Origin: an uncultured Candidatus Saccharibacteria bacterium
GTDB lineage: Bacteria > Patescibacteriota > Saccharimonadia > Saccharimonadales > Saccharimonadaceae
Direction: 5' to 3'
NCBI GenBank assembly: GCA_964442535.1
Contig: CAYTZL010000001.1
Coordinates: forward strand, 1-62,656
Length of the DNA: 62,656 nucleotides
Shown here piece after piece: positions 348-32,341 of the stretch. The notes beneath the pieces were generated by a model. That model saw nothing but the letters and a program-made list of their open reading frames with translations. It made no database searches and had not been told where the DNA came from. Position 1 is the stretch's first letter; every line of letters begins with the position of its first letter. Both the position numbers and the translations under genes were made by a program.

Positions 348-578
348 CTTATTCTTTGTGCGGGGCGGCCGCATAGATCCCAGCAATCAGCAGCTCAACC
401 TCGCTGGCTTGTACGGCTACTATTGGGCCTCCCGAGCCCACTCTAATATTAACAGTACCTATATCCTCAATTTCAATACCGGTGTCAATCCTTCCCTCTA
501 CGGCGGTCGTTTCAGTGGTTTTTCCCTTCGCTGCCTAATCCCTACCTCCTAGTCCTAAGCTAGGGAGGAAGGAGAGAA
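348..578 (+). repeat. Variable FISUMP/CLec cassette 2 (5'-truncated, DGR VR-like)
   Basis: Encodes LFFVRGG..YYWASRA..SLRCLIPTS* (stop 550-552) plus tail TCCTAAGCTAGGGAGGAAGGAGAGAA. Confidence 0.9.
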
Positions 579-619
579 AAACCGGCCAAAACAAACCGCC
601 CCGCCCGGCAAGCAGAACG

Positions 620-779
620 TGATTCGGAGCTAGAATTTCCTAGATTGGTGACTTTCTCCAACAAAACCCGGAATTCGAGAATAGAATTGAACTAGTTTGC
701 ATTCTAGTGAGGGAAGCGCGCCTATTGGGCGAGCGACCGAAACTAGAACTTGCAAAATAGCCAATTCTAACTCGAATTC
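620..779. repeat. Palindromic element family D
   Basis: Core GAGGGAAGCGCGCCTATTGGGCGAGC with inverted arms; near-copy at 25338-25517, fragment at ~13460-13492. Confidence 0.7.
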
Positions 780-1157
780 CTACTCCACCCGCAGTTTCTC
801 TGCCATACTCTCCATCTCCTCCGGCGTCATCTTCAGCGTCCTCTCCCCCGCCCAATTCTCATTCACCGGCAAAAGGTGCACATGCACATGCGGCACATCC
901 GTCCCCACCACCTTAATCATCGTCCTCTCCCCCAGCACCTCATCAAAATGCCTCGCCAGCATCTTCACCGTCGCCATCACCGCATTGTAATACTCATCAT
1001 CCAAATCATAAATCTTATCCACCTCCACCTTTGGCACCACCAACGTATGCCCCGGCGCCTCCGGCTCAATGTCAAGAAACGCAAACGTCTTCTCATCCTC
1101 ATAGATCTTATAGCACGGCAATTCCCCGTTAATTATCTTCATAAACACTGTACTCAT
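780..1157 (-). CDS. HIT family (histidine triad) hydrolase
   Basis: STVFMKII..GELPCYKIYED start, GHTLVVPK, HVHVH triad. Confidence 0.9.
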   Translation of the reverse strand: MSTVFMKIINGELPCYKIYEDEKTFAFLDIEPEAPGHTLVVPKVEVDKIYDLDDEYYNAVMATVKMLARHFDEVLGERTMIKVVGTDVPHVHVHLLPVNENWAGERTLKMTPEEMESMAEKLRVE

Positions 1158-1297
1158 CTTAACTCCTCATTTCTTCATGAACAGTCCAACCCCTATTGAC
1201 TCTTTTCATGAACACTTTACTACTTTTAACTCCCCACACTACTTTTCCCAATTATACCACAAAAATACCCCATATTAAAACCCGCGAAGGGGCTTTC

Positions 1298-1475
1298 TAT
1301 GGATGTGTATTCGTATATCTGACTGTATGAGGGTACTTTGCCTCTTTTCGCAGGGGGTGCGGAGTTACGACGAGCATTAGCGCCACGACCCTGTAACGAC
1401 AGGCGTCGTGGACGCGCCCCAAGAAAAGAGGTAAAGTCCCTCCATACAGACACATAACCACAAATACACACCCAT
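1298..1475. repeat. Palindromic element family B, copy 1
   Basis: Core GCAGGGGGTGCGGAG..GAGCATTAGCGCCACGACCCTGTAACGACAGGCGTCGTGGACGCGCCCC with long inverted arms. Confidence 0.8.
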
Positions 1476-1477
1476 AG

Positions 1478-1505
1478 AAAAGCCCCCGCTTTCGCGGGGG
1501 CTTAA
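1478..1505 (-). terminator. Intrinsic terminator after the SLH gene
   Basis: AAGCCCCCGC-TTTC-GCGGGGGCTT with an A-run on + (U-run on -). Confidence 0.7.
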
Positions 1506-1520
1506 TATCGCCAACTTTAA

Positions 1521-4500
1521 TTAGTTAGCAATAGACAGGAGGTTCTGGAAGATCTGCGCAACCTCAGCCCGAGTGGCCTGACCCTTAGGAGCCAGAGTCG
1601 TACTCGTACGACCCTTAATCACGCCGTTCTCCACTGCCCAACGCATAGCGTTAGTAGCATAGGAACTAACTTCCGTAGCATCAGTGTATCCGTTCAGGTC
1701 CATACCAGCACCCGGCTCACCAACATATCTCCACAGCATAGTAACCAGCTGTTCACGAGAAATGTCTGCAGTCGGATTAGAACCATCGCTCACGCCCTTA
1801 GACATCGCCCATTCGATGCCCTTGGCATACCAGGTGGAACCACCGTTGGTATCCACACCGTCATATCTCGCCAACACCGTCACTACCATCGCCCGAGTCA
1901 TCGGAGCGTTCGGAGAGAATGTAGTAGCGCTTGTACCATTAAACAGATCTCTTGCTGTCGCGAAAGCTACCGCGTTGGTCGCCCAGTGATTAGTCATATC
2001 GGCAAAACTCATACCTCTATCGACCAACTTCACCGTAGCACCATTCGCCACCGTCGCTACAACAGTATTACCTGCCACGATCGAATCCTTCATTACACTA
2101 TAAGTGCCATCCGGATTCTTAACCATCGCTACAGTACCCGCGGTCGCACCGCTAGCCGGAATCGCCACAGTTACGTTGTTTCCGTTCTCTGTCTTCACAG
2201 TCACGGTCTCAGCAGAGCTCTCGCTCTTCGTCACCGCTACCGTGTTCATCGACAGTTTCACGGGATCACCAGCCGCCGCTTCGACCGTTGTCGTCTTCAG
2301 CTCGACCGTTGTCTCGGTCTTGCCGTTCGCGTCAGTATTCACGGTGGTCTTTGTGCCGTCCTTCTGGGTAATTGTCACCACGGAAGAACCGTCAGGATTC
2401 TTTGTCGTCACGGTCACAGCCCCAGTGTTCGGGTCTGTAGTTGTAGTCGTATCAGGCTTCTGCGTCGGAGTACCAGAGTTACCGGAAGATCCGCTATGGC
2501 TACCGCCACCGCCGGTCTTCGTACCAGCCGCCCCACAAATCGGGCAAGTAGCACTGGTCAGAATATCAGCATGGTTGCCGCCATTCTTATCGCAGTCACT
2601 CTGGAACTTTGCCAGCGTGTAATCACAATCAGTGTGCCTACAATCGCCGTTGGTGTCAAAGCTATTCTTGTCATGCGCCGCGAAAGTGTTATTGTGGCCA
2701 GTGCCAACAAATCCGCACTCCTCGCACTTCTGAGTCGTCAGCAGGTTCGCATGCGTCGCAACCAGCGGGCAGCTCTCCTGGAACTGAGTCAGGGTGTAAT
2801 GACAAGTGTCATGCTTGCAGGAACCATCCTCGTTAAAGCTACCCAGATTATGCGCATCGCGCACCTCGGTATGCTTCTCACCCGGCAGTCCGCAAGTCGG
2901 ACAACTATGGGTAGTCAGGATATTCGCATGGTTAGCTGCATCGGGGCAGCCCGGGCAATTCGGATTGCCGCAGACGCCATTGTTCCAATCATGAACATGT
3001 GTTTCCACCATCACGAAAGTCGTCAGGTGGTCAACACCAAACGTAGCGTTACCATTCTCGTCCACCAGCACAATACCGCCGATGCTCTTCAGGGACTTAT
3101 CAGTGTCATCGACATAGTAGACCTTCACACCTTTAGCCCCGTCAGGAGCCTTCATGGTGATCAGAATCTCATTGTCCAGACCAGTAATAGTCGCCTCGGT
3201 ATTACCCTTGCTCAGAGTCACATCGAGCGCCACTGCGTTGTCGACATCGACAACAGCACCCTGGTCGTCCTTGTAAACGTCCTGTCCGCCTTCCTGAGTA
3301 GCAGTCAGCTGATCCTTCAGGTCGGAACTAGTCACATTAGCCAGATCCACTACCACGCTAGCAGTAGTATCACTATCCTGTGCCATCGTTACCGCTTCAA
3401 TCGGCAGTGCCACCGCACCAGCCGTGTTCATCACAACCAGCGTCACCGGCGCACTCACAGAAGTCGTCTGACCTTCGCTGTCTTCAACTTCCACGGTCTG
3501 AGCATCAACCAAAGCCTTCACGGTCGCCGCTGCCAGGGTCAATGTTGCCGCACCGACATCACCAGTAGAATCGGCCATATCAACAACCAAATTCACCGGA
3601 GCCACCGGGCTCACATCATCCCCAGTCCGCGCGTCAGTAATCGCACTTGCTACATCAGTACTCACAGGCTCCGCCTTCACAGTACCATTGTCAACAGATT
3701 TCTCTACTTCCAAAGGCACCGTCACCGGAGCAACATAGGTACCAACCAGACCACACTCGGGGCACTTCTCACCCTTCAGAATAGTCGCATGACTATCACT
3801 CAGGGAACAACCCGGGCAGGTGCCCGCGCCGTCGCACACGCCGTCAGTCCAATGATGAACGTGCTTCGTCCCCACGAAACCACAGGTCTCGCAAGTTTCG
3901 CCAGCTACAATGCTGCTATGATTGCTCGTATTCGGGCAAGCGATACCACAAACCTCGCACACGCCGGACTTATCCTCAGCCCAAGTATGCGGAGTATGCA
4001 GTCTCTGATACTCAACCATCGTAATGGTCACATCGCAACCATCAGCCTTACAGGTCGGCACGCCATTCACCAACTCAAAGTCAGCAAACACATGCGTATA
4101 ACCAGCCGGATGTGCCGGAGTCACAACCTGCGTAGTAGTAACTTCTACCACCTGATACTTAGCGGCGTTACCGTCGCCAGTTTTCAGAACAATTTTACAG
4201 GTATTATTTGTCACCGGCAGCCACAACATTAAGTTGTCCGCAGCAACGTTCCACTCGGGATGCGTAGCATCATCGTAGCCATACTGGCCACCCTGATTGT
4301 CGGCACCTGTCACCAACTTCCAATCAGCAGTCGTCAGACCAGTGATAGGAATAGTCAGGTGATAATTCGGCGTACCAGTCGGCTGACCATCCTGAGGATC
4401 GCCACCGATTGTCTTACCAGGCTCAGAAGTCAGCGTTACCGCCACCTTCACCACGTCGCCTTCGGTTGTCACCACCACCGCGCCAGTACCGTTCTTCACG

Positions 4501-5903
4501 GTGTCTGCTCTCACAGCAGCAGTCCCGACCACAGTCAGCCCGTTATCGAGCTCAACCGGAGCCTTGTAGCCGCACTTCGAGCAAGCATTACCAGTGCCAT
4601 CAGTGTCACACTTTTCCTTCTCAGCCACAACCTTACCGCAGGTATCACAAACGATCTTGTGATATCCAGCGTTGTCAGCCAGAGCAGTCGCAGTCGTATC
4701 GGCATGCGTACAGGCCATTCCGCAATTCTTGCAGACGCCAGTCGTCGCATCCCACTCGGCATGGCTACACTTCATCTTACAAGTTGCGCACACACCGTCC
4801 TTCGCAGTCCAGTCATGCGCACCATAGGCGTTCTTCTGAGCATTGTCGGTTACATCACAACCGTCAGCGGTGCACTCGTGCCAATGATGAGTATCATTAT
4901 TAGCCCAAGCAGCCGTCCAAGTATGCTCATGTTTGTAACCACACACCGAGCAAGCGCCGTTGTCGCCGTTCTTGTCGTGCGCGGCATAGCCGTCCTTATC
5001 CTTATCGGCCAAGTTGCACTCGGTTTTATTACCCTTGCACTCATGCCAATGATGAGTTGCACTTATGGACCAATCAGTGTTCCAATCATGCACATGCCCA
5101 GCGGCCGCAACAGTCAAACCGCAGATGTTGCACGTACCAGGATTCTGAGCTGTCGGATGATTTGCCGTATTGGAGCAAGCCGCTCCGCAAGCAACGCAGA
5201 CGCCATCCTTCGCAGTCCAATCGTGTGTCTCATGCAACGCCTGATATGCCTCCGCAGTGATCTCCTCACCGCAAAGCTTACAGGTGATCTTGCCAGTTTC
5301 GCTATCCTTCTGATAGTCGCTGAACACATGGTCATAACCAGCATAATGCGCAGCATGCTTCGTGGTAACCTGTACCACCTGATACACAGCAGGATTGCTA
5401 TCGGCCTGCTGCAGAACAACCTTACAGCTATTCTCTGCCACCGGCAGCCACAGCATCAGGTTGTCCGCATCGACATTCCAATCCTTGTTGTTCGTATCAT
5501 CGTAGCCATACTGGCCACCCTGATCGCCGCCGGTCACGAGCTCCCACCCAGCAGTCGTCAGACCCGTAATAGGAATAGTCAGGTGATAGTTCGGCGTACC
5601 AGTCGGCTGGCCATCCTGAGGATCGCCACCGATTGTCTCGCCTTCGTTCGGCGTCAGCGTCACAGCCACATTGACCACTTTGTCGTCACCTACCGTTACG
5701 GTAGCACTTCCTGTTCCGCCTTTTACGGTATCAGCCCTGACAGTCGCAGTGCCAACAGCCGTCAGCCCATTGCCGAGATCCGTCGAGGTAGCATTACTGC
5801 CATCATTCCCCGCCGCGAACGCCGGCCCGACAGTGCTCATCATCAGAACGAACACCATCAGAAAAGCCATCAGTTTCCGCAAGTTTCTCTTCGATACGTC
5901 CAT
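1521..5903 (-). CDS. 1460-aa secreted surface protein with duplicated N-terminal domain, Cys/His-rich CxxC repeats and C-terminal S-layer homology (SLH) domains
   Basis: Signal peptide ending AFA; domain L(G/D)NGLT..NLMLWLPV present twice; many CxxCG/HHWHEC motifs; SLH motifs FADMTNHWA..FSPNAPMTRA, ISREQL, LAPKGQATRAE. Confidence 0.85.
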   Translation of the reverse strand: MDVSKRNLRKLMAFLMVFVLMMSTVGPAFAAGNDGSNATSTDLGNGLTAVGTATVRADTVKGGTGSATVTVGDDKVVNVAVTLTPNEGETIGGDPQDGQPTGTPNYHLTIPITGLTTAGWELVTGGDQGGQYGYDDTNNKDWNVDADNLMLWLPVAENSCKVVLQQADSNPAVYQVVQVTTKHAAHYAGYDHVFSDYQKDSETGKITCKLCGEEITAEAYQALHETHDWTAKDGVCVACGAACSNTANHPTAQNPGTCNICGLTVAAAGHVHDWNTDWSISATHHWHECKGNKTECNLADKDKDGYAAHDKNGDNGACSVCGYKHEHTWTAAWANNDTHHWHECTADGCDVTDNAQKNAYGAHDWTAKDGVCATCKMKCSHAEWDATTGVCKNCGMACTHADTTATALADNAGYHKIVCDTCGKVVAEKEKCDTDGTGNACSKCGYKAPVELDNGLTVVGTAAVRADTVKNGTGAVVVTTEGDVVKVAVTLTSEPGKTIGGDPQDGQPTGTPNYHLTIPITGLTTADWKLVTGADNQGGQYGYDDATHPEWNVAADNLMLWLPVTNNTCKIVLKTGDGNAAKYQVVEVTTTQVVTPAHPAGYTHVFADFELVNGVPTCKADGCDVTITMVEYQRLHTPHTWAEDKSGVCEVCGIACPNTSNHSSIVAGETCETCGFVGTKHVHHWTDGVCDGAGTCPGCSLSDSHATILKGEKCPECGLVGTYVAPVTVPLEVEKSVDNGTVKAEPVSTDVASAITDARTGDDVSPVAPVNLVVDMADSTGDVGAATLTLAAATVKALVDAQTVEVEDSEGQTTSVSAPVTLVVMNTAGAVALPIEAVTMAQDSDTTASVVVDLANVTSSDLKDQLTATQEGGQDVYKDDQGAVVDVDNAVALDVTLSKGNTEATITGLDNEILITMKAPDGAKGVKVYYVDDTDKSLKSIGGIVLVDENGNATFGVDHLTTFVMVETHVHDWNNGVCGNPNCPGCPDAANHANILTTHSCPTCGLPGEKHTEVRDAHNLGSFNEDGSCKHDTCHYTLTQFQESCPLVATHANLLTTQKCEECGFVGTGHNNTFAAHDKNSFDTNGDCRHTDCDYTLAKFQSDCDKNGGNHADILTSATCPICGAAGTKTGGGGSHSGSSGNSGTPTQKPDTTTTTDPNTGAVTVTTKNPDGSSVVTITQKDGTKTTVNTDANGKTETTVELKTTTVEAAAGDPVKLSMNTVAVTKSESSAETVTVKTENGNNVTVAIPASGATAGTVAMVKNPDGTYSVMKDSIVAGNTVVATVANGATVKLVDRGMSFADMTNHWATNAVAFATARDLFNGTSATTFSPNAPMTRAMVVTVLARYDGVDTNGGSTWYAKGIEWAMSKGVSDGSNPTADISREQLVTMLWRYVGEPGAGMDLNGYTDATEVSSYATNAMRWAVENGVIKGRTSTTLAPKGQATRAEVAQIFQNLLSIAN

Positions 5904-6190: not shown

Positions 6191-6340
6191 AACTTAATCA
6201 ACAGTGTAAGGGGAACCTAATTACTTTTTGAAGAGGGTACGGAGCTACGGCGAGTATTAGCGCGCGGCACCCGCGACGGCGGGCTGACGCGACGCGCCTC
6301 GAAAAGAGTAATTAGGTTCCCCTTACACTATTTGTTAAGT
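6191..6340. repeat. Palindromic element family B, copy 2
   Basis: Diverged core (GAGTATTAGCGCGCGGCACCCGCGACGGCGGGCTG) between arms AGTGTAAGGGGAACCTAATTACT / AGTAATTAGGTTCCCCTTACACT. Confidence 0.75.
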
Positions 6341-6389
6341 AAAAAAATGGCCACCCATCCGGATGACCATATATAAATATAAACGTTGA

Positions 6390-7535
6390 TTACGTCTGAT
6401 TCCTAGCCGCTTCCGCCGCCGTCCGCACATTAATCGTTACCTTTGTCTTCCCCGCACAAACCGGACAGCCAGCGCCTCGCGTCCGCGAGTAAATCACCGC
6501 CTTCCAGCTATGCCCTTCCGGACACAGCCACCAAACCTTCCGCCGGCTCCCCGACGTCACGTCCTCCGGCGTCAATTTCCCGTTCAGCGTCGGATGCCAC
6601 TGTTCCGCCAGCCGCGGCTCCAGCGTCGCCAGATCGTTAAACCCCAGCCACACCTTTCGCCCCGCACAGTACGGACAGCCCGAACCACTATTCGTCCGCG
6701 CGCCAACCGCCGCCTGATAATCATGCCCCTCCGGACACAACCACCAAACCTTCCGATTACTCGACGGCGACACCGCATCCGGCCGCAGCTGCCCATTTTT
6801 CGTCGGATGCCACTCGGCCGCAATCTCCGGAAAATGACTCTTCAAATCATTCTCCTCTGCAACCACCGCCCGACTCGCACAGACCGGACAACCAGCACCT
6901 CGCGCCCGCGAAGCCACCGCCGACCGCCATTGATGGCCTTTCTCACAACACCACCAAACTCTACGGCGCGACCCCACCGTCACCTCAGTCGGCAGAATGT
7001 CATTTCTCTCTCTGACCCACTCCGCCGCCAGCTCCGGTCTCTTCGTCGCTAAATCGTTCACTCCCGGAACTACCACCCGATTTGCACAAACCGGACAGCC
7101 AGCCCCACCCACACGCGTCTTTATCATTGCCTGCCATTCGTGACCCTTCGCACAACGCCACCACATTCTCCGATGGCTCCCCACCGTCACCTGTGCCGGC
7201 GTCACCGCTCCGTTCTTCGTCGGGTGCCACTCAGCCGCAATCTCCGGCTTCAGCGTCGCCAGGTCATTCTCCCCCGGCCACACCTTTCGCCCCGAGCAGT
7301 ACGGACAACCGCTTCCACTCGTCCGCGAATATACCAGCGCCTTCCACGAATGACCCCTTTCGCAAATCCACCAAAACTTCTGATGCGCCCCAAACGACAC
7401 ATCCTGCGGCCGCCAATTCTTGTTCTTCTCCGTATCCCACGACCTCAGAATTTCCTCTTTCCCGTTCTCCATACAAAATTCATACAAACTCTGCTTCATC
7501 ATACACACTCCTTCAAAATCTCTAGCTTCCGCCAT
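6390..7535 (-). CDS. Zinc-ribbon repeat protein (DUF4379-like); true start probably near 7502 (MMKQSL)
   Basis: Five repeats of (EW)..P..V..GS.R.VWW.C..GH.W.A....R..G.GCP.C. Confidence 0.8.
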   Translation of the reverse strand: MAEARDFEGVCMMKQSLYEFCMENGKEEILRSWDTEKNKNWRPQDVSFGAHQKFWWICERGHSWKALVYSRTSGSGCPYCSGRKVWPGENDLATLKPEIAAEWHPTKNGAVTPAQVTVGSHRRMWWRCAKGHEWQAMIKTRVGGAGCPVCANRVVVPGVNDLATKRPELAAEWVRERNDILPTEVTVGSRRRVWWCCEKGHQWRSAVASRARGAGCPVCASRAVVAEENDLKSHFPEIAAEWHPTKNGQLRPDAVSPSSNRKVWWLCPEGHDYQAAVGARTNSGSGCPYCAGRKVWLGFNDLATLEPRLAEQWHPTLNGKLTPEDVTSGSRRKVWWLCPEGHSWKAVIYSRTRGAGCPVCAGKTKVTINVRTAAEAARNQT

Positions 7536-7959: not shown

Positions 7960-8057
7960 TTGACATTCCCTTAAACATTTACTATCATAAAACTACCGAG
8001 GATAGAAATTCTACCCTCAACCTAGAGAGCGTTACTTCGGGACCGCTCTCATTTTTT
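7960..8057 (+). ncRNA. Promoter + hairpin sRNA + terminator, copy 2 (overlaps the NYN stop codon)
   Basis: TTGACA(7960)-17-TATCAT; tandem near-duplicate of the copy 1 5' part; terminator GAGAGCG..CGCTCTC-ATTTTTT. Confidence 0.55.
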
Positions 8058-8699
8058 ATCTTCCGCCGCAACTAGGTCAATTATGTCACGTATATCTATC
8101 AAATGATACCGAGGCAACTCCCCACGCATAATTCGCAGCCTCACCGACAACGTATTCCTCGCAAAATCCCTCACCGCCGGCGTCGCCAACACCGATACCG
8201 TCACATTCTCGTTCGTCAGCGCATTCTTAATCATCTCCGCATAGTCCCCGTCACAAGATACTAAAATTATATGCGTCGGTTTCTCCACCCTATGCGCCAC
8301 CGCCAACAATTCCGTCGCCAAATACACATCCACATTCGACTTCATTGCCCTCCGCTCTCGCGCAAACTCCGCCACCCACTCATTTCCACACCTCGGACAC
8401 TTCATACCCCTCTTCTCCACCCCAACCGAACTATACGCCTTCCTCTCTAGCGCACAAACTACATACCCTTTCCCCTCCAAAAACTCAAACATCCGCCTTT
8501 TCTTCTCATCCCCCTTCGCAATCCCTTCATAATACCGCACTTCCCTCAAATTCACATACTTTCCCCGCAAATACTCCAACAACCTTACAAAGTCAATCCT
8601 CTTTCCCAAAGTCTTCCCACACGCCAACCGAATATTACTCACATCAATATAAACATACGTCTCCCGCTCCTTCAGCGCCATCGTCCTTGTTTTCATCAT
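8049..8699 (-). CDS. NYN/LabA-DUF88 (PIN-like) ribonuclease-domain protein with inserted CPRC knuckle
   Basis: YVYIDVSNI, KSNVDVYLA, ILVSCDGDY acidic motifs. Confidence 0.8.
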   Translation of the reverse strand: MMKTRTMALKERETYVYIDVSNIRLACGKTLGKRIDFVRLLEYLRGKYVNLREVRYYEGIAKGDEKKRRMFEFLEGKGYVVCALERKAYSSVGVEKRGMKCPRCGNEWVAEFARERRAMKSNVDVYLATELLAVAHRVEKPTHIILVSCDGDYAEMIKNALTNENVTVSVLATPAVRDFARNTLSVRLRIMRGELPRYHLIDIRDIIDLVAAEDKK

Positions 8700-8981: not shown

Positions 8982-9240
8982 CTCTTCCGTCCACCAGACT
9001 AGTCACTCTTCTCCTTCCTCCCTAGCTTAGGACTAGGTGGTAGGGATTAGGCAGCGAAGGGGATAGCCGATGTAGCGAGAGTTGCTATAGGACGGATCGA
9101 CGCTAGTATAGAAGCGGAGGTAGTAGGCGTCGTAAGTATTAGAGCCGGCTCGGGACGACCAGTAGAGGCCCCACTGACCAACGCTCTGCAACGGGCTAGA
9201 ATCGTTAGAGACGACGTTGCCGCCCCGCACAAAGAATAAG
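8982..9240 (-). repeat. Variable FISUMP/CLec cassette 3 with extended tail
   Basis: LFFVRGGNVV..LYWSSRA..PLRCLIPTT* (stop 9033-9035) plus tail ..GAGTGACTAGTCTGGTGGACGGAAGAG. Confidence 0.9.
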
Positions 9241-12556: not shown

Positions 12557-13089
12557 CTCTTCTCTCTTCTCTTCCGTCCACCAGACTAGTCACTCTTCTC
12601 TCCTTCCTCCCTAGCTTAGGACTAGGGGGTAGGGATTAGGCAGCGAAGGGAATAGCCGCGGTAGCGATAGACGTAGTTGTAGCCGTAGGACGGCCTAACG
12701 GCGCTACTATCGAAGTAGAGGTAGTAGGCGCCGCTTGCGCCAGAGCTGGCTCGCGATGACCAGTAGTCGCCGCGCTGGCCAACGTTCTGTAACGGGTTAG
12801 AACTGTTAGGGTCGACGATGCCGCCCCGCACAAAGAATAAGGGACTTAGGACAATGTTGTAAGTATTACTATTAACGCTACTCGTACCAGACAGACTACT
12901 CGCTACACCATACTGGGTCAGCATATACCCGAACGTACCCTTCGTAGTATTATTCCCAGAACTCGGCAATTTCCAGTTCTTGGGACAGATGCTCCCACTC
13001 GCATTAGCATTCGTGATACTTCCTCCAGTCCCCGCCGTCGCCGCATTCCATTGGTAGTAATTCCCAGCAAGGTAGTGCTTAATACACAC
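12557..13089 (-). repeat. Variable FISUMP/CLec cassette 4, long form (from HYLAGNYYQWNAATAG)
   Basis: 155-codon open frame 12622-13089 with SICPKNWKLP and variable end ..LRCLIPTP*, plus extended tail. Confidence 0.9.
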
Positions 13090-15169: not shown

Positions 15170-15442
15170 TCCTCTCTTCTCTTCCGTCCACCAAACTAGT
15201 CACTCTCCTTCCTCGAAGCCTTAGGACTAGGTGGTAGGGATTAGACAGCGAAGGAAATTGCCGTTGTAGCGATAGTCGCTGCCGGACGGATTGACGTAGC
15301 TATCAAAGTAGAAGTAGTAAGCGTAGGCAGTGCTAGAGGAGGCTCGCGAGGACCAGTAGCTGCCCCACTGGCCAGCGTTCCTGAATGGCGCGCTAGAGTT
15401 GCCTGGAGTGACATACCCGCCCCGCACAAAGAATAATTCCAT
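15170..15442 (-). repeat. Variable FISUMP/CLec cassette 5 (tandem with cassette 6)
   Basis: MELFFVRGGYV..FLRCLIPTT* 15227-15442; tail slightly altered. Confidence 0.9.
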
Positions 15443-15448
15443 TGCCTC

Positions 15449-15690
15449 TTCTCTCCTTCCTCCCTAGCTTAGGACTAGGTGGTAGGGATTAGACAGCGAA
15501 GGGAACGGCCGTAGTAGCGGCTGACGTAGTAGTTGCTGGACGGACTGACGTAGCTACTATCGAAGGTGAGGCTGTAGGCGAAGCTAGAGCTAGAGTCGGC
15601 TCGCGACGACCAGTAGCGGCCCTCCTGGCCAGCGTACCACAACTGCTGACTGTTCGAATTGATGTTACCGCCCCGCACAAAGAATAATTC
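15449..15690 (-). repeat. Variable FISUMP/CLec cassette 6
   Basis: ELFFVRGGNI..SLRCLIPTT* (stop 15475-15477) plus standard tail. Confidence 0.9.
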
Positions 15691-16609: not shown

Positions 16610-17019
16610 GCTAACGCCAGCAGTTCCATCTGTCCCAAGAATTGGAAGTTGCCGAGCTCCGGGGATAATACTACTAAGGGAACCTTTGGGTATATGTTGA
16701 ACCAGTATGGTGTAGCGAGTAGTTTGTCTGGTACGAGTAACGTTAATAGTAATACCTACAACATCGCCCAGAGTCCCTTATTCTTTGTGCGGGGCGGCTA
16801 CGTCAATCTATACTACCCTAGTGAGCCCTTCAGGTGGGCTGGGTCTGATGGCTATTACTGGTCCTCTCGAGCCTATTCTGATACTAGCTACGCCTACTAC
16901 CTCTACTTCGATAATAGCATCGTCGCTCCGTCCTACGGCAACGTCGCTCGCTACCTCGGCTTTTCCCTTCGCTGCCTAATCCCTACCACCTAGTCTTAAG
17001 CTAGGGAGGAAGGAGAGAA
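16610..17019 (+). repeat. Variable FISUMP/CLec cassette 7, long form
   Basis: ANASSSICPKNWKLP..SLRCLIPTT* (stop 16991-16993) plus tail; 16637-17019 identical to 21229-21611. Confidence 0.9.
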
Positions 17020-17026: not shown

Positions 17027-17154
17027 ATAGGAGTGTAGCTTTAGGGATTTATGAGAGACTAAAAGAGTGACCAAGCTGGTCACTCAGAACGACGACCCTG
17101 TGAAGACAGGCGTCGGAGTGGGTCTCGAGAAAATCCCTAAAGCTACACTCCTAT
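17027..17154. repeat. Palindromic element family A, intergenic
   Basis: 24-bp perfect arms ATAGGAGTGTAGCTTTAGGGATTT; core GAGTGACCAAGCTGGTCACTC..GACCCTGTGAAGACAGGCGTCGG. Confidence 0.85.
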
Positions 17155-18994: not shown

Positions 18995-20389
18995 ATGAAA
19001 ATCCTCGCTATCGAAACCTCTTGTGACGAAACCGCTGCCGCCGTCATCGAAAACGGTACCAAAATTCTCAGCAACGTCGTCGTCTCCCAGATCGACATTT
19101 TCGCTGCCTACGGCGGGGTCATCCCTGAAGTCGCCGCCCGCTCCCACCTCGAAGCCATCCTCCCTGTCATCCACCAAGCCCTCCTCGAAGCCGGCATCAC
19201 CAAATACAGCTCCGCCTACCTCTCCAAAAACCCCAATTTACAACATAAATTCCCTAAAACTACAACTTCCGACGATATTAACTCTGCCACCCCCGAATCC
19301 ACCGCCGCCGACATCGACGCCATCGCCGTCACCCACACCCCCGGCCTCGTCGGCTCCCTCCTCATCGGCACCCTCACCGCCCGCACCCTCGCCATCCTCT
19401 GGCACAAGCCCCTCTACGCCGTCCACCACCTCAAATCCCACATCTACGCCAACTGGCTAAGCCCTGCAACAACCACCGACGGGCTAGTAAGGGGAAAGAC
19501 GAAAAATCAACCATGTTCTAACAAAAACTGCTTCCAAGAGAGCTATAAGGAGAAAGACAGTGCGGATCATCGGTGTTGTTCTAGCGAACCTTTTTCTCGA
19601 GAGAAGAAAAGAGCGTCCGAGCTGGACGCTCAGAACGACGACCCCGCAAAGGCGGGCGTCGGAGTGATTCTTTCGAAAAAAGCGTTCGCTAGAACAACAT
19701 CCGATAGCATACCGTCTTTCCCCTTACTAGCCCTCGTCATCTCTGGCGGCCACACCCAAATCCTCTACATGCCCAAACACAACCATTTCGAAATCATCGG
19801 CACCACCCGCGACGACGCCATCGGCGAATGTTTCGACAAAGTCGCCAAAATCCTCGGCCTCCCCTACCCCGGCGGCCCCTCTATCGCTAAATGCGCCCTC
19901 GATGGCGACCCTAATAAGTACCGCCTCCCTCACCCCAAGGTCGACGGCCTCGATTTTTCCTTCTCCGGCCTCAAAACCGCCGTCCTCCGCGCCGTCCAAT
20001 CCGCCTGCCACCTCCCTATCACCACCCCCTCCTTCGAGCTCAAAAACCACCTCCCCCCTGAGCAGAAAGCCGATTTCGCCGCCTCTTTCCAAGCTACCGC
20101 CTGCGACATCCTCCTCGAAAAGCTCAAAATTGCCCTCCAGACGCATCCAGACGTCGTCTCCGTCGTTTTTGCCGGCGGAGTGAGTGCGAACCAGGTCCTG
20201 CGCGACAAGGCCCTCCACGGCCCTCTAAATGCCCTTAAAACCCAAATTTTCTTCCCCGAACCCCGCTTCACCGGCGACAACGCCGCCATGGTCGGTGCCG
20301 CCGCTTACTACGAAATCCTCTCCGGCATCGCCCCGACCGACCCCTATTCTCTCAGCATCGCTCCCCGCCGCCCACTCACCCAATCATAA
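18995..20389 (+). CDS. tsaD: tRNA N6-adenosine threonylcarbamoyltransferase with in-frame palindromic insertion
   Basis: ILAIETSCDETAAA, GGVIPEVAARSH, LVISGGHT, DDAIGECFDKVA, GGVSAN, DNAAMV. Confidence 0.95.
   Translation: MKILAIETSCDETAAAVIENGTKILSNVVVSQIDIFAAYGGVIPEVAARSHLEAILPVIHQALLEAGITKYSSAYLSKNPNLQHKFPKTTTSDDINSATPESTAADIDAIAVTHTPGLVGSLLIGTLTARTLAILWHKPLYAVHHLKSHIYANWLSPATTTDGLVRGKTKNQPCSNKNCFQESYKEKDSADHRCCSSEPFSREKKRASELDAQNDDPAKAGVGVILSKKAFARTTSDSIPSFPLLALVISGGHTQILYMPKHNHFEIIGTTRDDAIGECFDKVAKILGLPYPGGPSIAKCALDGDPNKYRLPHPKVDGLDFSFSGLKTAVLRAVQSACHLPITTPSFELKNHLPPEQKADFAASFQATACDILLEKLKIALQTHPDVVSVVFAGGVSANQVLRDKALHGPLNALKTQIFFPEPRFTGDNAAMVGAAAYYEILSGIAPTDPYSLSIAPRRPLTQS
19569..19705. 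repeat. Palindromic element family A inside tsaD
   Basis: Arms ATCGGTGTTGTTCTAGCGAAC / GTTCGCTAGAACAACATCCGAT; core GAGCGTCCGAGCTGGACGCTC..GACCCCGCAAAGGCGGGCGTCGG. Confidence 0.85.
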
Positions 20390-21154: not shown

Positions 21155-21611
21155 ACCAATGGAATGCGGCGACGGCCGGGACTGGTGGAACGATTACGAA
21201 TGTTAATGCCAGTGGGAGTATCTGTCCGAAGAATTGGAAGTTGCCGAGCTCCGGGGATAATACTACTAAGGGAACCTTTGGGTATATGTTGAACCAGTAT
21301 GGTGTAGCGAGTAGTTTGTCTGGTACGAGTAACGTTAATAGTAATACCTACAACATCGCCCAGAGTCCCTTATTCTTTGTGCGGGGCGGCTACGTCAATC
21401 TATACTACCCTAGTGAGCCCTTCAGGTGGGCTGGGTCTGATGGCTATTACTGGTCCTCTCGAGCCTATTCTGATACTAGCTACGCCTACTACCTCTACTT
21501 CGATAATAGCATCGTCGCTCCGTCCTACGGCAACGTCGCTCGCTACCTCGGCTTTTCCCTTCGCTGCCTAATCCCTACCACCTAGTCTTAAGCTAGGGAG
21601 GAAGGAGAGAA
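21155..21611 (+). repeat. Variable FISUMP/CLec cassette 8, long form (from QWNAATAGTGG)
   Basis: Open frame to stop 21583-21585 plus tail; 383 bp identical to cassette 7. Confidence 0.9.
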
Positions 21612-23582: not shown

Positions 23583-23869
23583 TTCCGTTCACCAGACTAG
23601 TTACTCTTCTCTCCTTCCTCCCTAGCTTAGGACTAGGTGGTAGGGATTAGGCAGCGAAGGGAAAAGCCGTTGTAACGATAATTCTCGCGGGCGAAAGATG
23701 GAATGATGCTGGCATCGAAGACGAGGCCGTAGGCGATGAGTGTATCCGAGAGGGTTCGTGAAGACCAGTAATAGCCAATCTCGCCAGCGTTGTAGAAATG
23801 ATTGGGGTCGCCAGGTAGAATACCGCCAGGAAACACCCCACCGCCCCGCACAAAGAATAAGGGACTCTG
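23583..23869 (-). repeat. Variable FISUMP/CLec cassette 9
   Basis: QSPLFFVRGGGVF..SLRCLIPTT* (stop 23633-23635) plus extended tail. Confidence 0.9.
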
Positions 23870-23898
23870 AGTAACCCAAAAAAGACACAACATCAGAA

Positions 23899-24300
23899 TC
23901 AGGCTAATTTCGCCGTCCCATTCTCCTTCGCCAACGCCTTATCAAACGTCCACAACGGCTCCGCCTTATTCATCGTCGCCTCAATCGCCAAATAACAATC
24001 CGTAAAAGACAACTTCGGATGATGTAAGTACATCCAAAACAACTCAAACCCCATCAAATCGCTAGCCCTCACATTCGGCCTAGAAATAATCCTCATCAAC
24101 GCTCCAACTATCGTCTCTCGATCCACCTCCATCCGCGTCAGCACAAAAACCACCTCCGACAGCATCGCATCCGACAACAAATACACCACATCATCCCGCT
24201 CCAGCAACTTTATCGCCCGCTCATACTGCTCCGGGATATCCTCCCACAGAAGCCTCAGAATTATATTAGTATCCAGCGACTCATACTTAACGGACCCCAT
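23899..24300 (-). CDS. PIN-domain (VapC-like) toxin
   Basis: LDTNIILR, EVVFVL, LSFTDC, TFDKAL; overlaps the upstream antitoxin gene. Confidence 0.85.
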   Translation of the reverse strand: MGSVKYESLDTNIILRLLWEDIPEQYERAIKLLERDDVVYLLSDAMLSEVVFVLTRMEVDRETIVGALMRIISRPNVRASDLMGFELFWMYLHHPKLSFTDCYLAIEATMNKAEPLWTFDKALAKENGTAKLA

Positions 24301-24658
24301 ATTTTTCCTTCATCCCCGCAACATTCTCCGGCAAATTATCGAAATAATCATGGTACTGCTTCAACGTCCACCCCGCCGTTTTACCAACCATCTCCTTAGT
24401 CTTCGGGGAAAGCGATTTTCGCCACTCTGTCATCTCCTCACGCAAACTCCGCTGTTTAGCTATCTCAAAGTACCCCTTCCGAGGCATAAACATCAATACG
24501 TCCCCAGGCTTCCATTCCAACTCCTCCCGCAACTCCTTCGGAATTGTCACCTGCCCATTGGCCGATATCTTTAAACGATATGGCTTTTTCTGCTCACCAA
24601 AATCACCAGCTCTCGCCACCCGCGCCATCGGCACCCGTTCAGCCACATCCGCTCCCAT
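24287..24658 (-). CDS. AbrB/MazE/SpoVT-family antitoxin
   Basis: KISANGQVTIPKELREELEWKPGD. Confidence 0.85.
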   Translation of the reverse strand: MGADVAERVPMARVARAGDFGEQKKPYRLKISANGQVTIPKELREELEWKPGDVLMFMPRKGYFEIAKQRSLREEMTEWRKSLSPKTKEMVGKTAGWTLKQYHDYFDNLPENVAGMKEKYGVR

Positions 24659-24830: not shown

Positions 24831-25072
24831 TTCTCTCCTTCCTCCCTAGCTTAGGACTAGGGGGTAGGGATTAGGCAGCGAAGGAATTGGCCAAGGTAGC
24901 GATTGAGGTTGTTGGACGGGCTGACGCCGCTATTCCAGAAGTTGAGCCTGTAGGCGTTACTAGTATTAGAGTAGGCTCGGGCGGACCAGTAATAGCCGCT
25001 CAGGCCAGCGTCCTGTAATGGGCTAGAACCGATAGAGTTGACGAAGCCGCCCCGCACAAAGAATAAGGGACT
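24831..25072 (-). repeat. Variable FISUMP/CLec cassette 10 (tandem with cassette 11)
   Basis: SPLFFVRGGFV..FLRCLIPTP* (stop 24857-24859) plus tail. Confidence 0.9.
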
Positions 25073-25074
25073 TT

Positions 25075-25320
25075 TTCTCTCCTTCCTCCCTAGCTTAGGA
25101 CTAGGTGGTAGGGACTAGGCAGCGAATGGAACGGCCGCCGTAGCGAAGGGCGTCGTTAGACGGATTGACGTAGCTATCATTGAAGTAGAGGTAGTAGGTG
25201 TAGGTAGAGCTAGAGTAGGCTCGAGAGGACCAGTAGGAGCCGAGCTGGCCAGCGAGCTGGAAGGGCGTAGATGTGCCGTTAGAGTACACCCCACCGCCCC
25301 GCACAAAGAATAAGGGACTC
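25075..25320 (-). repeat. Variable FISUMP/CLec cassette 11
   Basis: SPLFFVRGGGV..SIRCLVPTT* (stop 25101-25103); its tail abuts cassette 10. Confidence 0.9.
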
Positions 25321-25337
25321 ACCCAACGAGCAAAACA

Positions 25338-25517: not shown

Positions 25518-25522
25518 ACAAA

Positions 25523-25930
25523 TCACCCTATTAGCTCTGCACTTTTCGCCTGCTTAGCTAGCTTCCGATCAAACGTCCGTAGCGGTTCCGCCTGATTCAA
25601 CTCCGCATAGGCCGCCAAACAACAATCATTAAACGATAATTTTGGATGCTTCAAATACATCGGAAACGCCCGTTCAAACAAAGCCTTATTATAGTTCAAC
25701 GAAAAATCCTCCAACGTCGCCGTCAAAGCATCCACAATCCCCGGCCTCGTCCAGTGATAAATCGTCTGCAAAACATATGCCGCCTCCGTCACCGCCAAGT
25801 CCGCAACTTCATAAGTCACCCCCTGCCGCATAAACATATCCTGTATCTTCAACCCCAGTTCCGGAATATCCTTCAAAATTATCCGTAAAATCACACTAGT
25901 GTCTAACGATTCACGAGTCTTAAACGCCAT
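25523..25930 (-). CDS. PIN-domain (VapC-like) toxin, paralog of 23899-24300
   Basis: ESLDTSVILR, MYLKHPKLSFNDC, TFDRKLAK. Confidence 0.85.
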   Translation of the reverse strand: MAFKTRESLDTSVILRIILKDIPELGLKIQDMFMRQGVTYEVADLAVTEAAYVLQTIYHWTRPGIVDALTATLEDFSLNYNKALFERAFPMYLKHPKLSFNDCCLAAYAELNQAEPLRTFDRKLAKQAKSAELIG

Positions 25931-26252
25931 ACTTCTCCTTCAAATACGCCTTCGTCTCCGGCAAATTATCAATATATTCATGGTACTGACTCATCGTCCA
26001 TCCCGCCGTCTTCTTCGCAAACTCCCTCTGCTCTGGCGTCATCCGCGCCTCTTGCTCCGCACGAATCTCAGCCAACTTCGCAAAAGTCCGCTTAATTTTC
26101 TCCTCCCGCGTCTCTGCCTTCTCCACCGTCACCACCGCCTTATCCGTATCAAACACCACCTTATCCCCCGGTTTCAAATTCAACCTACTCCGCAGCAAAC
26201 TCGGCGCCGTAAACTGATATCCCGCCGACAACGTCGCTTCCACTCTTGGCAT
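25920..26252 (-). CDS. AbrB/MazE-family antitoxin, paralog of 24287-24658
   Basis: ATLSAGYQFTAP..LRSRLNLKPGD; shared C-terminus KTAGWT..QYH.Y.DNLPE..KEKYGV. Confidence 0.8.
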   Translation of the reverse strand: MPRVEATLSAGYQFTAPSLLRSRLNLKPGDKVVFDTDKAVVTVEKAETREEKIKRTFAKLAEIRAEQEARMTPEQREFAKKTAGWTMSQYHEYIDNLPETKAYLKEKYGV

Positions 26253-27730: not shown

Positions 27731-27773
27731 TTGGCACTCAAAACTTGACAGTGCCAAGCAACTGCGCTAATAT
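27731..27773 (+). promoter_or_regulatory. CIRCE-like operator overlapping the groESL promoter
   Basis: TTGGCACTC-N9-CAGTGCCAA (CIRCE consensus TTAGCACTC-N9-GAGTGCTAA); TTGACA(27745)-17-TAATAT. Confidence 0.65.
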
Positions 27774-27794
27774 AGAGGTACGAAAGGAGTTATT

Positions 27795-28049: not shown

Positions 28050-28206
28050 CATATAATCTATATTAACAACCAATCTCGAGACAACGTTTTGCCCCTGCCG
28101 AAACCGACCTTGACGGCGCCACGTCATCACTACCGCCGCTAAGGACTATTCTAACAGATCGGGTAAAACATTTCTCGACAAAATAATTTTTAACATCCGA
28201 TATAGC

Positions 28207-28320
28207 AGTTTCATGCTTCAAGTTTAAGAGAATAAAAGCGAGTCAAAGCTTGACTCGCAGAGTGAGACACCCGTAAAGACGGGCTGTCGAGCGGTTCTCT
28301 CAAACTTAAAGCATGGAACT
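28207..28320. repeat. Palindromic element family A between groES and groEL
   Basis: Core GCGAGTCAAAGCTTGACTCGC..GACACCCGTAAAGACGGGCTGTCGAG; arms AGTTTCATGCTT / AAGCATGGAACT. Confidence 0.8.
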
Positions 28321-28349
28321 AACTCATATCGAGATTTGAAAGGATTACT

Positions 28350-29966: not shown

Positions 29967-30086
29967 AGTACAAGACTCTTTAATCTAGATTAAACTAGCT
30001 TAAGACAATCTAAAGTAACTCAAGTACGTAACACAACCAAATGTTGGCGAACCCCTCCGGCTCGCCAATATTTTCCCCAATTTCGA

Positions 30087-30135
30087 GTTGAACTTGTAAA
30101 CGCTTTACAAGTTCAACCTCACTTTAGCAGAGGTA
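30087..30135. promoter_or_regulatory. Palindromic box copy 4 (14-bp arms)
   Basis: GTTGAACTTGTAAA-CGC-TTTACAAGTTCAAC, ~60 bp past the stop of the full-length FISUMP gene. Confidence 0.7.
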
Positions 30136-30172
30136 AAAAAGGCGCAATTCGCCATTAATTAACCACTTATTA

Positions 30173-31750
30173 CTAAAAAGTCGGTACTAAGCAGCGAAGA
30201 GAATGACCAATATAGCGATAGTTACTAAAGCTAGACGGGTTAATACTAGTATAAATGCTGAGGTAGTACGCTTGACTAGTTCTAGAAGCCGCTCGTGACG
30301 ACCAGTAATCACCTAAGCCACCAGCTACCCAAAATTTAGTACTACTATGAGGAAGAACATTCCCGCCCCGCACAAAAAACAATGGTGATAAAGCAATATT
30401 ATAAGTGTTCTCATCAGTAGAACCAGTCCCTATAAGACTTCCTTTGTCCCATGCTGACGCTAGCCCATACTGTTGCAATAAGTAAGCATAAGTTCCTTCT
30501 GTAACGGTGTCTATGTCCGTTGCACTGCTCGGCAATTTCCAGTTCTTTGGACAGATACTTCCACTTGCATCAGCATCTACAATCGCTTTGCCCGTCCCTG
30601 CCGCCGCTGTGTTCCAAGCATAGTGATTTCCAACGAGGTAATGGGCGTCATACTCAACGTCCGTATACGTCGCTCCGTTGTTCTTAAAAAAATTAGGATC
30701 AGTGCTCGGGGTTCGACTACCAATCACGGTAAATTGATCAGGACAAACGCTTGGGCCCATATTGTTATTCGAACATCCTGTTGTTGTGGTCGGATTAATA
30801 ATAACGTAATCCCCCATATCCCATGAATATGTACTCGCATAATTATTGTATCCGTACCCTAAGGTAGTCGCATTTATCGTCGTTACCGTCGTTTGCGGCG
30901 GATAGCTAGAGCTCGAAGCCCAGTCACTCTTCACGTCCGACGTCGCCGTAGTGACATTGGACGTCGAGATATTAAAGTCTAGGTTCTGGCTCATCCAGCA
31001 ATTCCCATCCAACATTTTCGTCACCCAATATTTCTTCCCATCTCGCACATCCGCTAAAAACGCTGTATCATTTACATTTGCTGCCTTGCATATTGCCGGA
31101 GTTAATTGCTGCATCTGCGTAATTCCGCCAAAAGTCGCTACAGTACTAGTAACCGTCCTCGGCTGCGCAACTACGCTAAGCGTTACGGTATTCCCGTAAA
31201 AGTCCTCCGCTGCAGAATTGTTTACCCTCGCTCCATAGAATAGCGTTAATTTCTTCGTAACACTACTACTGGTTGCTCCTCCAGTCCCGACACTCTGTTG
31301 ACTAGTAGTCATCGCTTTAAAACTCGTACTAGGATTGTAACTTGCTTCGCTATCTCCTAATACTCCATAATATCCCCACTCATTACTCATACTACCGAGG
31401 GTTTTAGATGAAGTAATGCTGGGGATCTTATGATTAGTGTTATTTCTTCCAGTTAGATTAGTATTACCGGAAACATACACAGTATATCCATCAGTATTAC
31501 CTACGGTAATTGTAGCAGTTTGTGATAATACCTTACCTGCTTCGTCTGGATTGGTCGAAGCATTAGCGGCGTCGAGGTCGGTTTGGATGGTGCCGGAACT
31601 GAGAGACAAAGAAACCGAAGAGCTAGTTTGAGAAGTTGTCGTCGTAGTCGTATTCAGCGGTATCTCCCACCCATTCGCCGCGCTAACTTCCTCCGCCCAA
31701 GCCAAAGCCGCTACTACTCCCATTATTACCCCTACTATCCTTTTCCGCAT
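30173..31750 (-). CDS. Full-length secreted protein with C-terminal FISUMP (Fib_succ_major)/C-type-lectin-like domain
   Basis: ATG 31750 with GGAGG; signal peptide; DVRDGKKYWV..GNCWMSQNL, GNHYAW, ICPKNWKLP, DYWSS, SLRCL. Confidence 0.85.
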   Translation of the reverse strand: MRKRIVGVIMGVVAALAWAEEVSAANGWEIPLNTTTTTTSQTSSSVSLSLSSGTIQTDLDAANASTNPDEAGKVLSQTATITVGNTDGYTVYVSGNTNLTGRNNTNHKIPSITSSKTLGSMSNEWGYYGVLGDSEASYNPSTSFKAMTTSQQSVGTGGATSSSVTKKLTLFYGARVNNSAAEDFYGNTVTLSVVAQPRTVTSTVATFGGITQMQQLTPAICKAANVNDTAFLADVRDGKKYWVTKMLDGNCWMSQNLDFNISTSNVTTATSDVKSDWASSSSYPPQTTVTTINATTLGYGYNNYASTYSWDMGDYVIINPTTTTGCSNNNMGPSVCPDQFTVIGSRTPSTDPNFFKNNGATYTDVEYDAHYLVGNHYAWNTAAAGTGKAIVDADASGSICPKNWKLPSSATDIDTVTEGTYAYLLQQYGLASAWDKGSLIGTGSTDENTYNIALSPLFFVRGGNVLPHSSTKFWVAGGLGDYWSSRAASRTSQAYYLSIYTSINPSSFSNYRYIGHSLRCLVPTF

Positions 31751-31798
31751 AAGCCCTCCTTTGGTTGTTATCAACCCTGACGGAGCGCCACCCCCAAA

Positions 31799-31942
31799 CA
31801 AAAAAGCGACACCGCAAGGTGTTCTACTCCCATTCGTAACTACAGCTTAACGCCAGCTACTTATGCGATGTCGCTTAAGTTGGCGTTAAGAACTATTGTA
31901 GTCAAACTGTAATCACATTGAGAGTAGAACATCCTCATTATA
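31799..31942 (-). promoter_or_regulatory. Extended -10 promoter and highly structured 5' leader of the FISUMP gene
   Basis: TGaTATAAT at 31937-31945; pairings TGTTCTACTC/GAGTAGAACA, CTTAACGCCA/TGGCGTTAAG, and alternative AGCGACA/TGTCGCT followed by a U-run. Confidence 0.55.
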
Positions 31943-31987
31943 TCACGAAATCAAGGCATTTTTAGATTTTTTCTCACCACAAAATCC

Positions 31988-32035
31988 AACTTGTAAACGC
32001 TTTACAAGTTCAACCCCATTTTAACAGAAGTCAAA
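31988..32035. promoter_or_regulatory. Palindromic box copy 5
   Basis: AACTTGTAAACGCTTTACAAGTT. Confidence 0.7.
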
Positions 32036-32097
32036 AAGTCCAAATTTTTGCTTAATTAACCGTTTTTGCCCACTTTTTTCTTGCTTTCGCCTCCAAA

Positions 32098-32341
32098 AAC
32101 TAGTCACTGTTCTCTCCTTCCTCCCTAGCTTAGGACTAGGTGGTAGGGATTAGGCAGCGAAGGGAATGGCCACGGTAGCGACTGAAGTAGTAGGACGGAT
32201 CGACGCCGGCAGTAAAGTAGAAGTAGTAGGCGTAGGTAGTATCAGAGTAGGCCCGAGAGGACCAGTAGTAGCCAGTACGGCCAGCGCTCTGGAACGGCGA
32301 TGAACCACCGGAGTAAATGAAGCCGCCCCGCACAAAGAATA
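32098..32341 (-). repeat. Variable FISUMP/CLec cassette 12
   Basis: LFFVRGGFIY..HSLRCLIPTT* (stop 32136-32138) plus tail. Confidence 0.9.

Follow-up and report, generated by a model that had tools for sequence, protein, structure and literature searches.

What has written, and what keeps, the dozen variable protein ends strewn over one contig of a small bacterial genome? The stretch analysed here, called the window, comprises positions 1-62656 of contig CAYTZL010000001.1 (C1; assembly GCA_964442535.1) of an uncultured Candidatus Saccharibacteria bacterium. This genome, G000, has 1.01 Mb in 67 contigs and is 90.7% complete; C-numbers denote its contigs unless another G label is given, and G and L labels denote other genomes and their stretches. 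Near strains were found in rat-gut and other gut runs. The repeat unit of the window reads FVRGG...YWSSRA...SLRC and is met as 13 exact 5′ anchors, which represent 12 whole copies (348 to 32342) and one cut by the contig start; 11 of the whole copies have no gene. These repeats carry the adenine-specific mutation signature of a diversity-generating retroelement (DGR), which is real, in a variant architecture with an unexplained archive. On balance, it seems probable that the repeats are DGR-written variable regions (VRs) served by template regions (TRs) and a reverse transcriptase (RT) on other contigs, and that most copies are gene-less DNA exports of an expressed lectin-fold gene, likely re-used as an archive of silent cassettes.

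The original prediction proposed adenine-specific mutagenesis from an unseen template rich in AAC and AAT codons. Indeed, TRs and a DGR-type RT were found on other contigs, and a search for a TR in the window gave none. The codons quoted after CGA-GCC/ACC and after CGC-TAC/TAT are present as listed, and those given for the L-x-F context agree as read from the sequences only. Adenine changes were counted over the 27 inner codons at which all three whole TRs agree. In ten window copies (excluding an identical duplicate and a mis-cut one), 103 of 240 adenines are changed (43%) versus 59 of 570 other bases (10%). Genome-wide, in 72 gene-less copies (identical duplicates and three mis-classed or mis-cut copies dropped), the counts are 805/1723 (47%) and 423/4097 (10%); Fisher tests on such counts treat sites as independent and overstate significance. 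When positions 1 and 2 vary, the third base is kept, as had been noticed: window copies retain C in 42 of 49 AAC and T in 18 of 23 AAT codons, and the genome-wide set in 304/361 and 134/168, respectively. AAC gives mainly Tyr (115 of 431 codons), and AAT mainly Ser, Asp, and Gly (Asp or Gly in 75 of 216). The replacement of the first A by T or G differs between AAC and AAT (p 3e-12 genome-wide; same direction in the window alone, p 0.33), and the same codon-context bias is described for Bordetella bRT in the available part of a published study (PMC12875486).

The cleanest pair of G000, the C3 TR against the VR at C6:38314, has 21 adenine and 2 other differences, and the cleanest TR-VR pair of G014 has 20 and 0. 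An explanation without any retroelement, by ordinary selection on Asn-rich loops or by assembly artefact, could point to the substantial synonymous drift outside adenines and to the breaking of this metagenome-assembled genome at the repeats. It is barely credible and already largely refuted by these clean pairs (21/23 and 20/20 at adenines). Moreover, AAC and AAT keep different third bases and yield different residues, TRs with leader and spacer exist, and the same architecture recurs in other assemblies and species.

Three whole TRs were found in G000 (C3:42, C26:12279, and C28:11180), all Asn-rich and with a 3′ end of their own, together with two TR-type ends at contig breaks, in line with the suspicion of more than one template. 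They hold 14-17 AAY codons versus 0-9 in the remaining copies. The C28 TR is equipped with a -10 box of its own, leader motifs in common with the TRs of relatives, and a 3′ spacer complementary to a leader segment; the C3 TR has the last 41 nt of this type of leader, and the C26 TR has no leader. VR and TR sequences part directly after the LRC codons. A search for an Rfam family of the TR RNA gave no match. A MITE-like element (miniature inverted-repeat transposable element) with terminal inverted repeats (C3:272-356, C26:11842-12015, C28:11410-11490, and at least six more contigs) sits just 3′ of four TR copies and of several target genes. The template back-inferred in the original prediction fared unevenly. 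Of the 41 residues of its peptide, 32, 35, and 35 agree with the translations of the three TRs, but two of its Asn positions are non-Asn in every assembled TR, and the TCA TCA invoked for the Ser-Ser codons occurs in none, though the columns concerned vary as adenines would. Likewise, the non-adenine changes foreseen as few are present but more than few, affecting 17% of non-A third positions and being mostly synonymous.

The RT was recovered by motif scan at C23:10296-11489. It is a 397-aa protein with intact GNLTSQ and YVDD motifs, and its best solved relative is the Bordetella DGR RT (8ub7_A, E 4.5e-23; next match 8.4e-6); motifs and relative together place it, by sequence, in the DGR lineage. 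The sole PF00078 match of the genome search is a second RT on C32 (L002:2485-3993), Drt4-like with E 6.5e-101 and under the curated cut-off. It was rejected as the DGR enzyme and is probably anti-phage and unrelated to the cassettes. No TR occurs on C23, which carries one gene-less VR. A 305-aa accessory gene lies upstream of the RT and overlaps its start. Avd profiles (including NF033474) gave no match to its protein or in the genome. The weak model of the protein (pLDDT 49) contains a four-helix bundle, for which Avd is a match at Z 11-12 along with many unrelated bundles, and its top match in the structure atlas, as a lead only, is bAvd at 0.77; likeness to Avd is thus plausible but unproven. 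L005 (7642-8333 and 9045-9116) also holds a DUF3800 gene with a DUF3800-IX RNA, and a tRNA directly upstream of this operon.

The targets belong to a family of about 39 full-length genes in G000, whose products have roughly 510 aa, a signal-peptide-like start, and a FISUMP domain (TIGR02145 over cut-off). The window member has 525 aa (30173..31750, minus strand; VR at 30173-30376), an N-terminus read from the sequence as signal-peptide-like, and no shared tail, and it is the most TR-diverged of the window copies. Its model has a pLDDT of 92, and the top structural matches are FGE and C-type lectin (CLec) folds, the latter making up nearly all of the 50 matches listed. DGR variable proteins are among them, namely TvpA (Z 7.5, rmsd 3.8, 159 aligned), TaqVP, and Mtd, each at Z below 8; a sequence search of solved structures and Foldseek gave no match for the target. 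The C-terminal VR therefore lies in a predicted C-type lectin fold, and the fold and signal peptide suggest a protein that binds ligands at the surface, in attachment to a host or in evasion of phages. Two proteins of other assemblies end in a peptide similar to the tail-encoded end described below. One paralogue is 97% identical to a protein of another assembly, in body and VR alike, so that some paralogues are static. P0018, a family protein of 59% identity whose VR is typical, bears the source label Ruminiclostridium, by misbinning or transfer.

The genes are, however, the minority. A profile search of G000 gave 123 VR-type matches, of which 116 with both borders were analysed and 7 skipped. 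The 116 comprise 3 TR-type copies, 34 with an upstream open reading frame (ORF) of at least 150 residues, and 79 without; about 77 are gene-less, because two of the 79 proved to be genes, one frameshifted and the other interrupted by a contig break. No gene-less copy overlaps an ORF of at least 200 residues, and together these copies make up 1.8% of the genome. Among the 79, 62 have at most 23 nt of gene sequence upstream (29 of them at most 8 nt), and 17 have 32-243 nt. Most begin where TR homology starts, within 23 nt of the first VR codon. One common tail of about 45 nt follows 75 of them and is absent in 32 of the 34 long-ORF copies, and tandem copies begin right behind the tail of the preceding one. 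Beyond the original prediction, then, most copies are gene-less members of a genome-wide family with selected, older divergence that the present TRs alone cannot write. The assembly itself breaks at VR-type repeats, and contigs C37, C40, C47, C53, C57-C60, C63-C65, and C67, with 25-32% GC versus about 50% elsewhere, are probably bin contamination.

The cores of these copies are nearly all different, with a median pairwise identity of 59% and two identical pairs among 6670. They have nevertheless been shaped as protein. Core length is a multiple of three in 78 of 79, and only two are broken by a stop or frameshift, whereas a crude simulation expects a stop alone in 37-52% of copies after 10-18% neutral drift. 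At A-free TR codons of the 72 gene-less copies, 137 of 744 synonymous and 48 of 1848 non-synonymous sites differ, a ratio of non-synonymous to synonymous change (dN/dS) of 0.14. Gene-less cores thus show purifying, protein-level selection. Third positions are changed in 10 of 432 cases at the borders versus 81 of 576 in the interior, a contrast due partly to search bias.

The tail, which lies outside the search patterns, behaves differently. It mismatches at about 1% versus a non-A divergence of 18% (G000) and 35% (G014) in the interior, and the two are uncorrelated. Its six adenines are unchanged in 72 copies, which together with the low divergence indicates that the mutagenic RT did not produce the tail. 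The cores, for their part, acquired their divergence under selection, either earlier than or away from the sites at which they now stand. Kept frame, protein-level selection, and invariant tail adenines make the insertion of raw cDNA unlikely, and retro-copying of the target mRNA including the tail was ruled out by the unchanged adenines and the identical pairs. Identical cores, or cores differing by one base, stand at unrelated sites in two pairs of G000, two of G014, and one of G274. Those with different junctions (window 32336 and C28:10678; two G014 pairs) require copying at the DNA level, its direction not being given by the pairs. The tail folds weakly (hairpin of -6.0 kcal/mol, its stem broken in the variant tail), and no common hairpin was seen by eye in the tails of other species. 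Cassette orientation against GC skew is 42/70 (p 0.12), with the leading strand not fixed. No tract of at least 40 nt is common to a gene-less copy and a full gene of G000. At least eight cassettes genome-wide have a common promoter-like upstream repeat, and cassettes may therefore double as recombination points for accessory genes.

Fixed 3′ ends with a weak hairpin, abundant other MITE-like and REP-like (repetitive extragenic palindromic) repeats, and upstream repeats common to some copies might suggest that such an element captured a VR and was spread by a transposase, the DGR being incidental. This is very improbable. Terminal inverted repeats or target duplications were not found, with no empty site available for comparison; Y1 transposase, the one family searched, has no match in the 91%-complete genome; the cores are nearly all different; and the tails differ wholly between species, following the target gene of each.

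The gene-less copies could also be independent DGR targets, or remnants of decayed paralogues, re-diversified in place through the kept 3′ targeting signal. The targets of phage BPP-1 need nothing upstream of the VR, as far as the available text of PMC3240598 goes, some 39 full-length paralogues exist, 17 of the 79 copies retain 32-243 nt of gene, and G014 shows a continuum of 0 to 50 non-A differences to its TR. Nonetheless, the absence of the tail in nearly all copies with long upstream ORFs, the sharp 5′ borders, and the tandem copies directly behind a previous tail speak against it, and in-place rewriting of untranslated DNA would not yield the dN/dS of 0.14, in-frame-only indels, or identical distant pairs. 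This origin is improbable.

A third possibility accepts the DGR and regards the gene-less copies as dead snapshots or by-products of ectopic retrohoming, turning over fast and never read back. It would account for 5′ ends at the TR border and fixed 3′ ends, for tails almost undecayed as in recent insertions, for a copy number running from 0 to 196 among genomes of the same RT clade, and for the one window site that differs between strains; all selection could predate export. However, recent export needs one gene with dozens of alleles 18-35% apart at non-A sites, beyond the present TRs. As raw cDNA, the by-products conflict with the dN/dS, the invariant tail adenines, and the identical pairs. 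The copies take up 1.8% of a 1-Mb genome, and two sites are common to strains from four studies. We regard this account as unlikely.

A re-used archive would work as follows. The RT and accessory protein would act in trans on the TR RNAs, and new alleles would be written and selected in one or few full-length, tail-bearing genes. A DNA-level step would place allele and tail in an intergenic site, possibly by capture of the old VR strand displaced in retrohoming, and the integration step would set the export borders. The constant borders could then be handles for conversion among cassettes, the expressed gene, and the TRs; this read-back by conversion is the weakest step of the proposal.

Several observations weigh against this reading. 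Anchors of about 20 nt at the 5′ side are short for RecA. Non-A differences to the best TR number 14-28 in most window copies and 14-30 in most copies overall, so that the window copies are not direct products of the TRs now seen, and a filter demanding 75% of changes at adenines would reject most single copies owing to this divergence. The check proposed at the outset, that variable columns should be adenines in a genomic TR, holds as an enrichment at TR adenines, but several columns vary like adenines and are non-A in all assembled TRs; earlier or unassembled TRs are thus needed. No full-length gene with an intact tail is assembled in G000, and the best-matching VR (C6) is itself 5′-truncated. 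No gene-less core exceeds 85% identity to a VR in the assembled full genes, and among proteins of other assemblies identity to a gene-less VR never rises above 68%, so that import into an expressed gene can only be presumed. Within the genome, neither an empty site nor a target-site duplication was found, 21 paralogous-flank candidates all being neighbouring cassettes. Finally, the two TRs found in G010 carry anchors other than those of its cassettes.

G000 is not a unique case, as a first candidate count had suggested before species-specific patterns overturned it. The VR-end pattern, which favours the VR end of the G000 clade and gives 0-1 matches in a reversed-pattern control, has at least 40 matches in 17 of 369 genus genomes (maximum 196) and at least 20 in 29, kin genomes not being independent. 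In each of the 17, an RT shares 64% identity or more with that of G000; an RT of at least 60% identity is present in 54 genomes, so that the RT is not sufficient. Species-specific patterns match 84 times in G014, 64 in G016, 237 in G356, and 107 in G274. In sampled stretches of G014 (46 copies), G274, G356, G369, and G010, nearly all copies are gene-less and the tail is species-specific; in G014, G274, and G356 the cassette 5′ ends fall at the species' own TR border, and G274 has a full-length gene carrying the cassette tail. Scans of metagenomes and viruses for TR leader and tail gave no match (near records may be left out).

In G014, G016, G010, and G023, the RT is closely followed by the TR. 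Conversely, in G286, G268, and G271, whose RTs are most similar to that of G000, the TR is multiplied instead of the cassettes. At least 12 stand-alone units of promoter, leader, TR, and 3′ spacer occur in G286 on C4, C8, and C14 (L102, L103, L105), remote from the RT, and similar arrays with a single remote DGR RT, a template library, are present in G268 (C63, L101), G279, and G271. A variable stretch 5′ of the G286 and G268 TRs was considered as guide spacers and proved part of a homologous RNA leader. The templates appear to be rewritten at adenines themselves, unless assembly chimeras are involved. Among the 12 aligned leader-bearing G286 units, variation is found at 16% of majority-A versus 8% of other sites; the corresponding bias in G268 is not significant (26/265 vs 40/635, p 0.07). 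The RT-adjacent TR of L115 (4580-4606) has six adenine differences to L116 and L124 in about 20 nt, and where the two best VRs of the C28 TR imply AAC and CAG, the TR itself reads GCC and CGG. The TRs of L121 and L055 have VR-like 5′ halves.

Other arrangements were noted in these relatives. In L149 (G369:C20:400-860), two cassettes with G000 anchors and tail share a contig with the cassette type proper to that other species. This was the one instance in 293 other genomes, by transfer or mis-assembly. In L096 (G356:C16), a gene-less VR starts 3 nt behind the RT stop, at about the place of the TR unit in relatives. The RT-adjacent VR of G014 (L035, L087) has a long tail with a hairpin and a long-range inverted repeat; the TR 3′ spacer motif recurs about 145 nt downstream, and one remote copy keeps the whole arrangement.

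Within the window, the anchor cut by the contig start is at 1..20 on the minus strand. The first whole cassette (348..576, plus) has a TR-homologous core, a stop at 552, the shared tail, and 7 nt of gene-like sequence upstream. That at 9009..9240 (minus) has the shared tail and 7 nt of upstream homology; the sequence left of 9251 differs in contigs from three other runs, strains having been compared on contigs. Gene-less tandem pairs, both on the minus strand, consist of 15451..15688 followed by 15203..15437, the latter with a variant tail, and of 25077..25320 followed by 24833..25074. A further gene-less cassette at 23609..23874 (minus) has a 207-nt core with in-frame insertions, and its 5′ end recurs at the same site in contigs from four other runs. 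The cassette ends at 23845 and 24858 are the same in contigs from four studies. The last one (32112..32342, minus) has a core identical to that of C28:10678, which differs in its 5′ junction and a tail base. Three copies are 5′-truncated gene ends: 12598..13077 (minus) joins 243 nt of FISUMP coding sequence to a VR and the shared tail, and 16628..17017 and 21155..21609 (both plus), with 156 and 221 nt upstream, contain identical VRs beginning at 16784 and 21376.

Intergenic REP-like palindromic families are also present in the window (1319-1431, 6224-6308, 9985-10065, 11365-11401, 17053-17133, 19599-19679, 28226-28306, 36451-36563, 39209-39321, and 56371-56483), one of them occurring also 3′ of the DGR RT on C23. 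Two PIN/AbrB-type toxin-antitoxin pairs (23899-24658 and 25523-26252) and an NYN gene (8049-8699) lie between or beside cassettes. On the minus strand, 1521-5903 encodes an internally repetitive 1460-aa protein, rich in Cys and His and with SLH domains at its C-terminus, that looks Firmicutes-like for a Saccharibacteria contig, and 6390-7535 a protein with five DUF4379 treble-clef repeats.

Compared with the DGRs of Bordetella phage BPP-1 (brt/avd/TR/mtd) and the Legionella CLec2 class (DUF1566/DUF823/Fib_succ_major targets), as far as covered in PMC5758913, the present system has the same DGR-type RT, A-to-N changes, and AAY-rich TR. It also shares the C-terminal VR, placed in a Fib_succ_major domain for which a C-type lectin fold is predicted (PMC5758913), an upstream accessory gene with a four-helix bundle (here a weak model), and paired 5′ and 3′ RNA flanks. 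Unlike in those systems, the TR is away from the RT and exists in several stand-alone copies, and two thirds of the copies have no gene. About 116 VR-like copies stand against at most 8 targets, seven of them non-adjacent (PMC5758913), and six per genome (PMC11661182) in the accessible parts of these reports. Multi-locus DGRs described for Thiohalocapsa PB-PSB1 (9 loci, 15 targets, in trans; PMC10907252) and Trichodesmium (18 loci with TR/VR homology; PMC8867640) are alike in remote targets, trans activity (here presumed), and MITE-like repeats near DGR parts. In what is available of these two accounts, however, the remote loci are target genes or degenerate DGR loci; in G000, a single DGR RT is found together with about 77 start-less VR tips that have a tail in common.

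Published counts, in the portions of sources consulted, reach at most 8 targets in a cassette, 15 targets spread over 9 loci, and 18 loci (PMC8144416, PMC10907252, PMC3240598, PMC5758913, PMC11661182, PMC6182149, PMC8867640, PMC12875486, bioRxiv 10.1101/2024.11.15.621889). The available text of one of them states that genomes with two or more TRs were removed from cassette analysis (PMC11661182). No description of gene-less VR swarms or TR arrays was found in the literature covered, outside of which stand a 2017 survey of CPR bacteria and the supplements of the papers, either of which may list cases.

Anaplasma msp2 pseudogenes and Neisseria pilS are known systems of antigenic variation from silent cassettes. 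The Borrelia vlsE/vls system, in the part of its description at hand (PMC2632889), resembles the present one in frame-kept variable cores between constant borders, related to a surface-protein family; the cassettes of G000 are gene-less by sequence. In contrast to vls, msp2, and pilS, it is a mutagenic RT that first writes the diversity of G000; the assembly contains no expression site, and conversion into one is presumed.

DGRs are usually described as one invariant template rewriting one to few genes, with old alleles unrecorded. Here, instead, one RT is accompanied by several free-standing templates, signs of template rewriting, and about 100 VR copies in a 1-Mb genome, a system that would escape DGR finders requiring the TR to be close to the RT, or the VR to lie within a gene. 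The junctions of the gene-less copies, from the TR border to a fixed 3′ point, may record the ends of integration intermediates, the least understood step of retrohoming, and would then offer many natural footprints to test. More tentatively, and with rather less than even confidence, we propose that a clade of rodent-gut Saccharibacteria has joined a DGR to silent cassettes. Retrohoming would write new lectin tips, and displaced alleles that had already passed selection would be stored around the chromosome in 40-240 gene-less cassettes, from which they would return by recombination to the expressed gene and to the template RNA genes. As the templates diversify, a heritable memory of past binding specificities would arise, together with a second tier of mutagenesis reaching non-adenine sites. 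If the archive is indeed read back, this would be a DGR-fed system of antigenic variation in a host-dependent bacterium.

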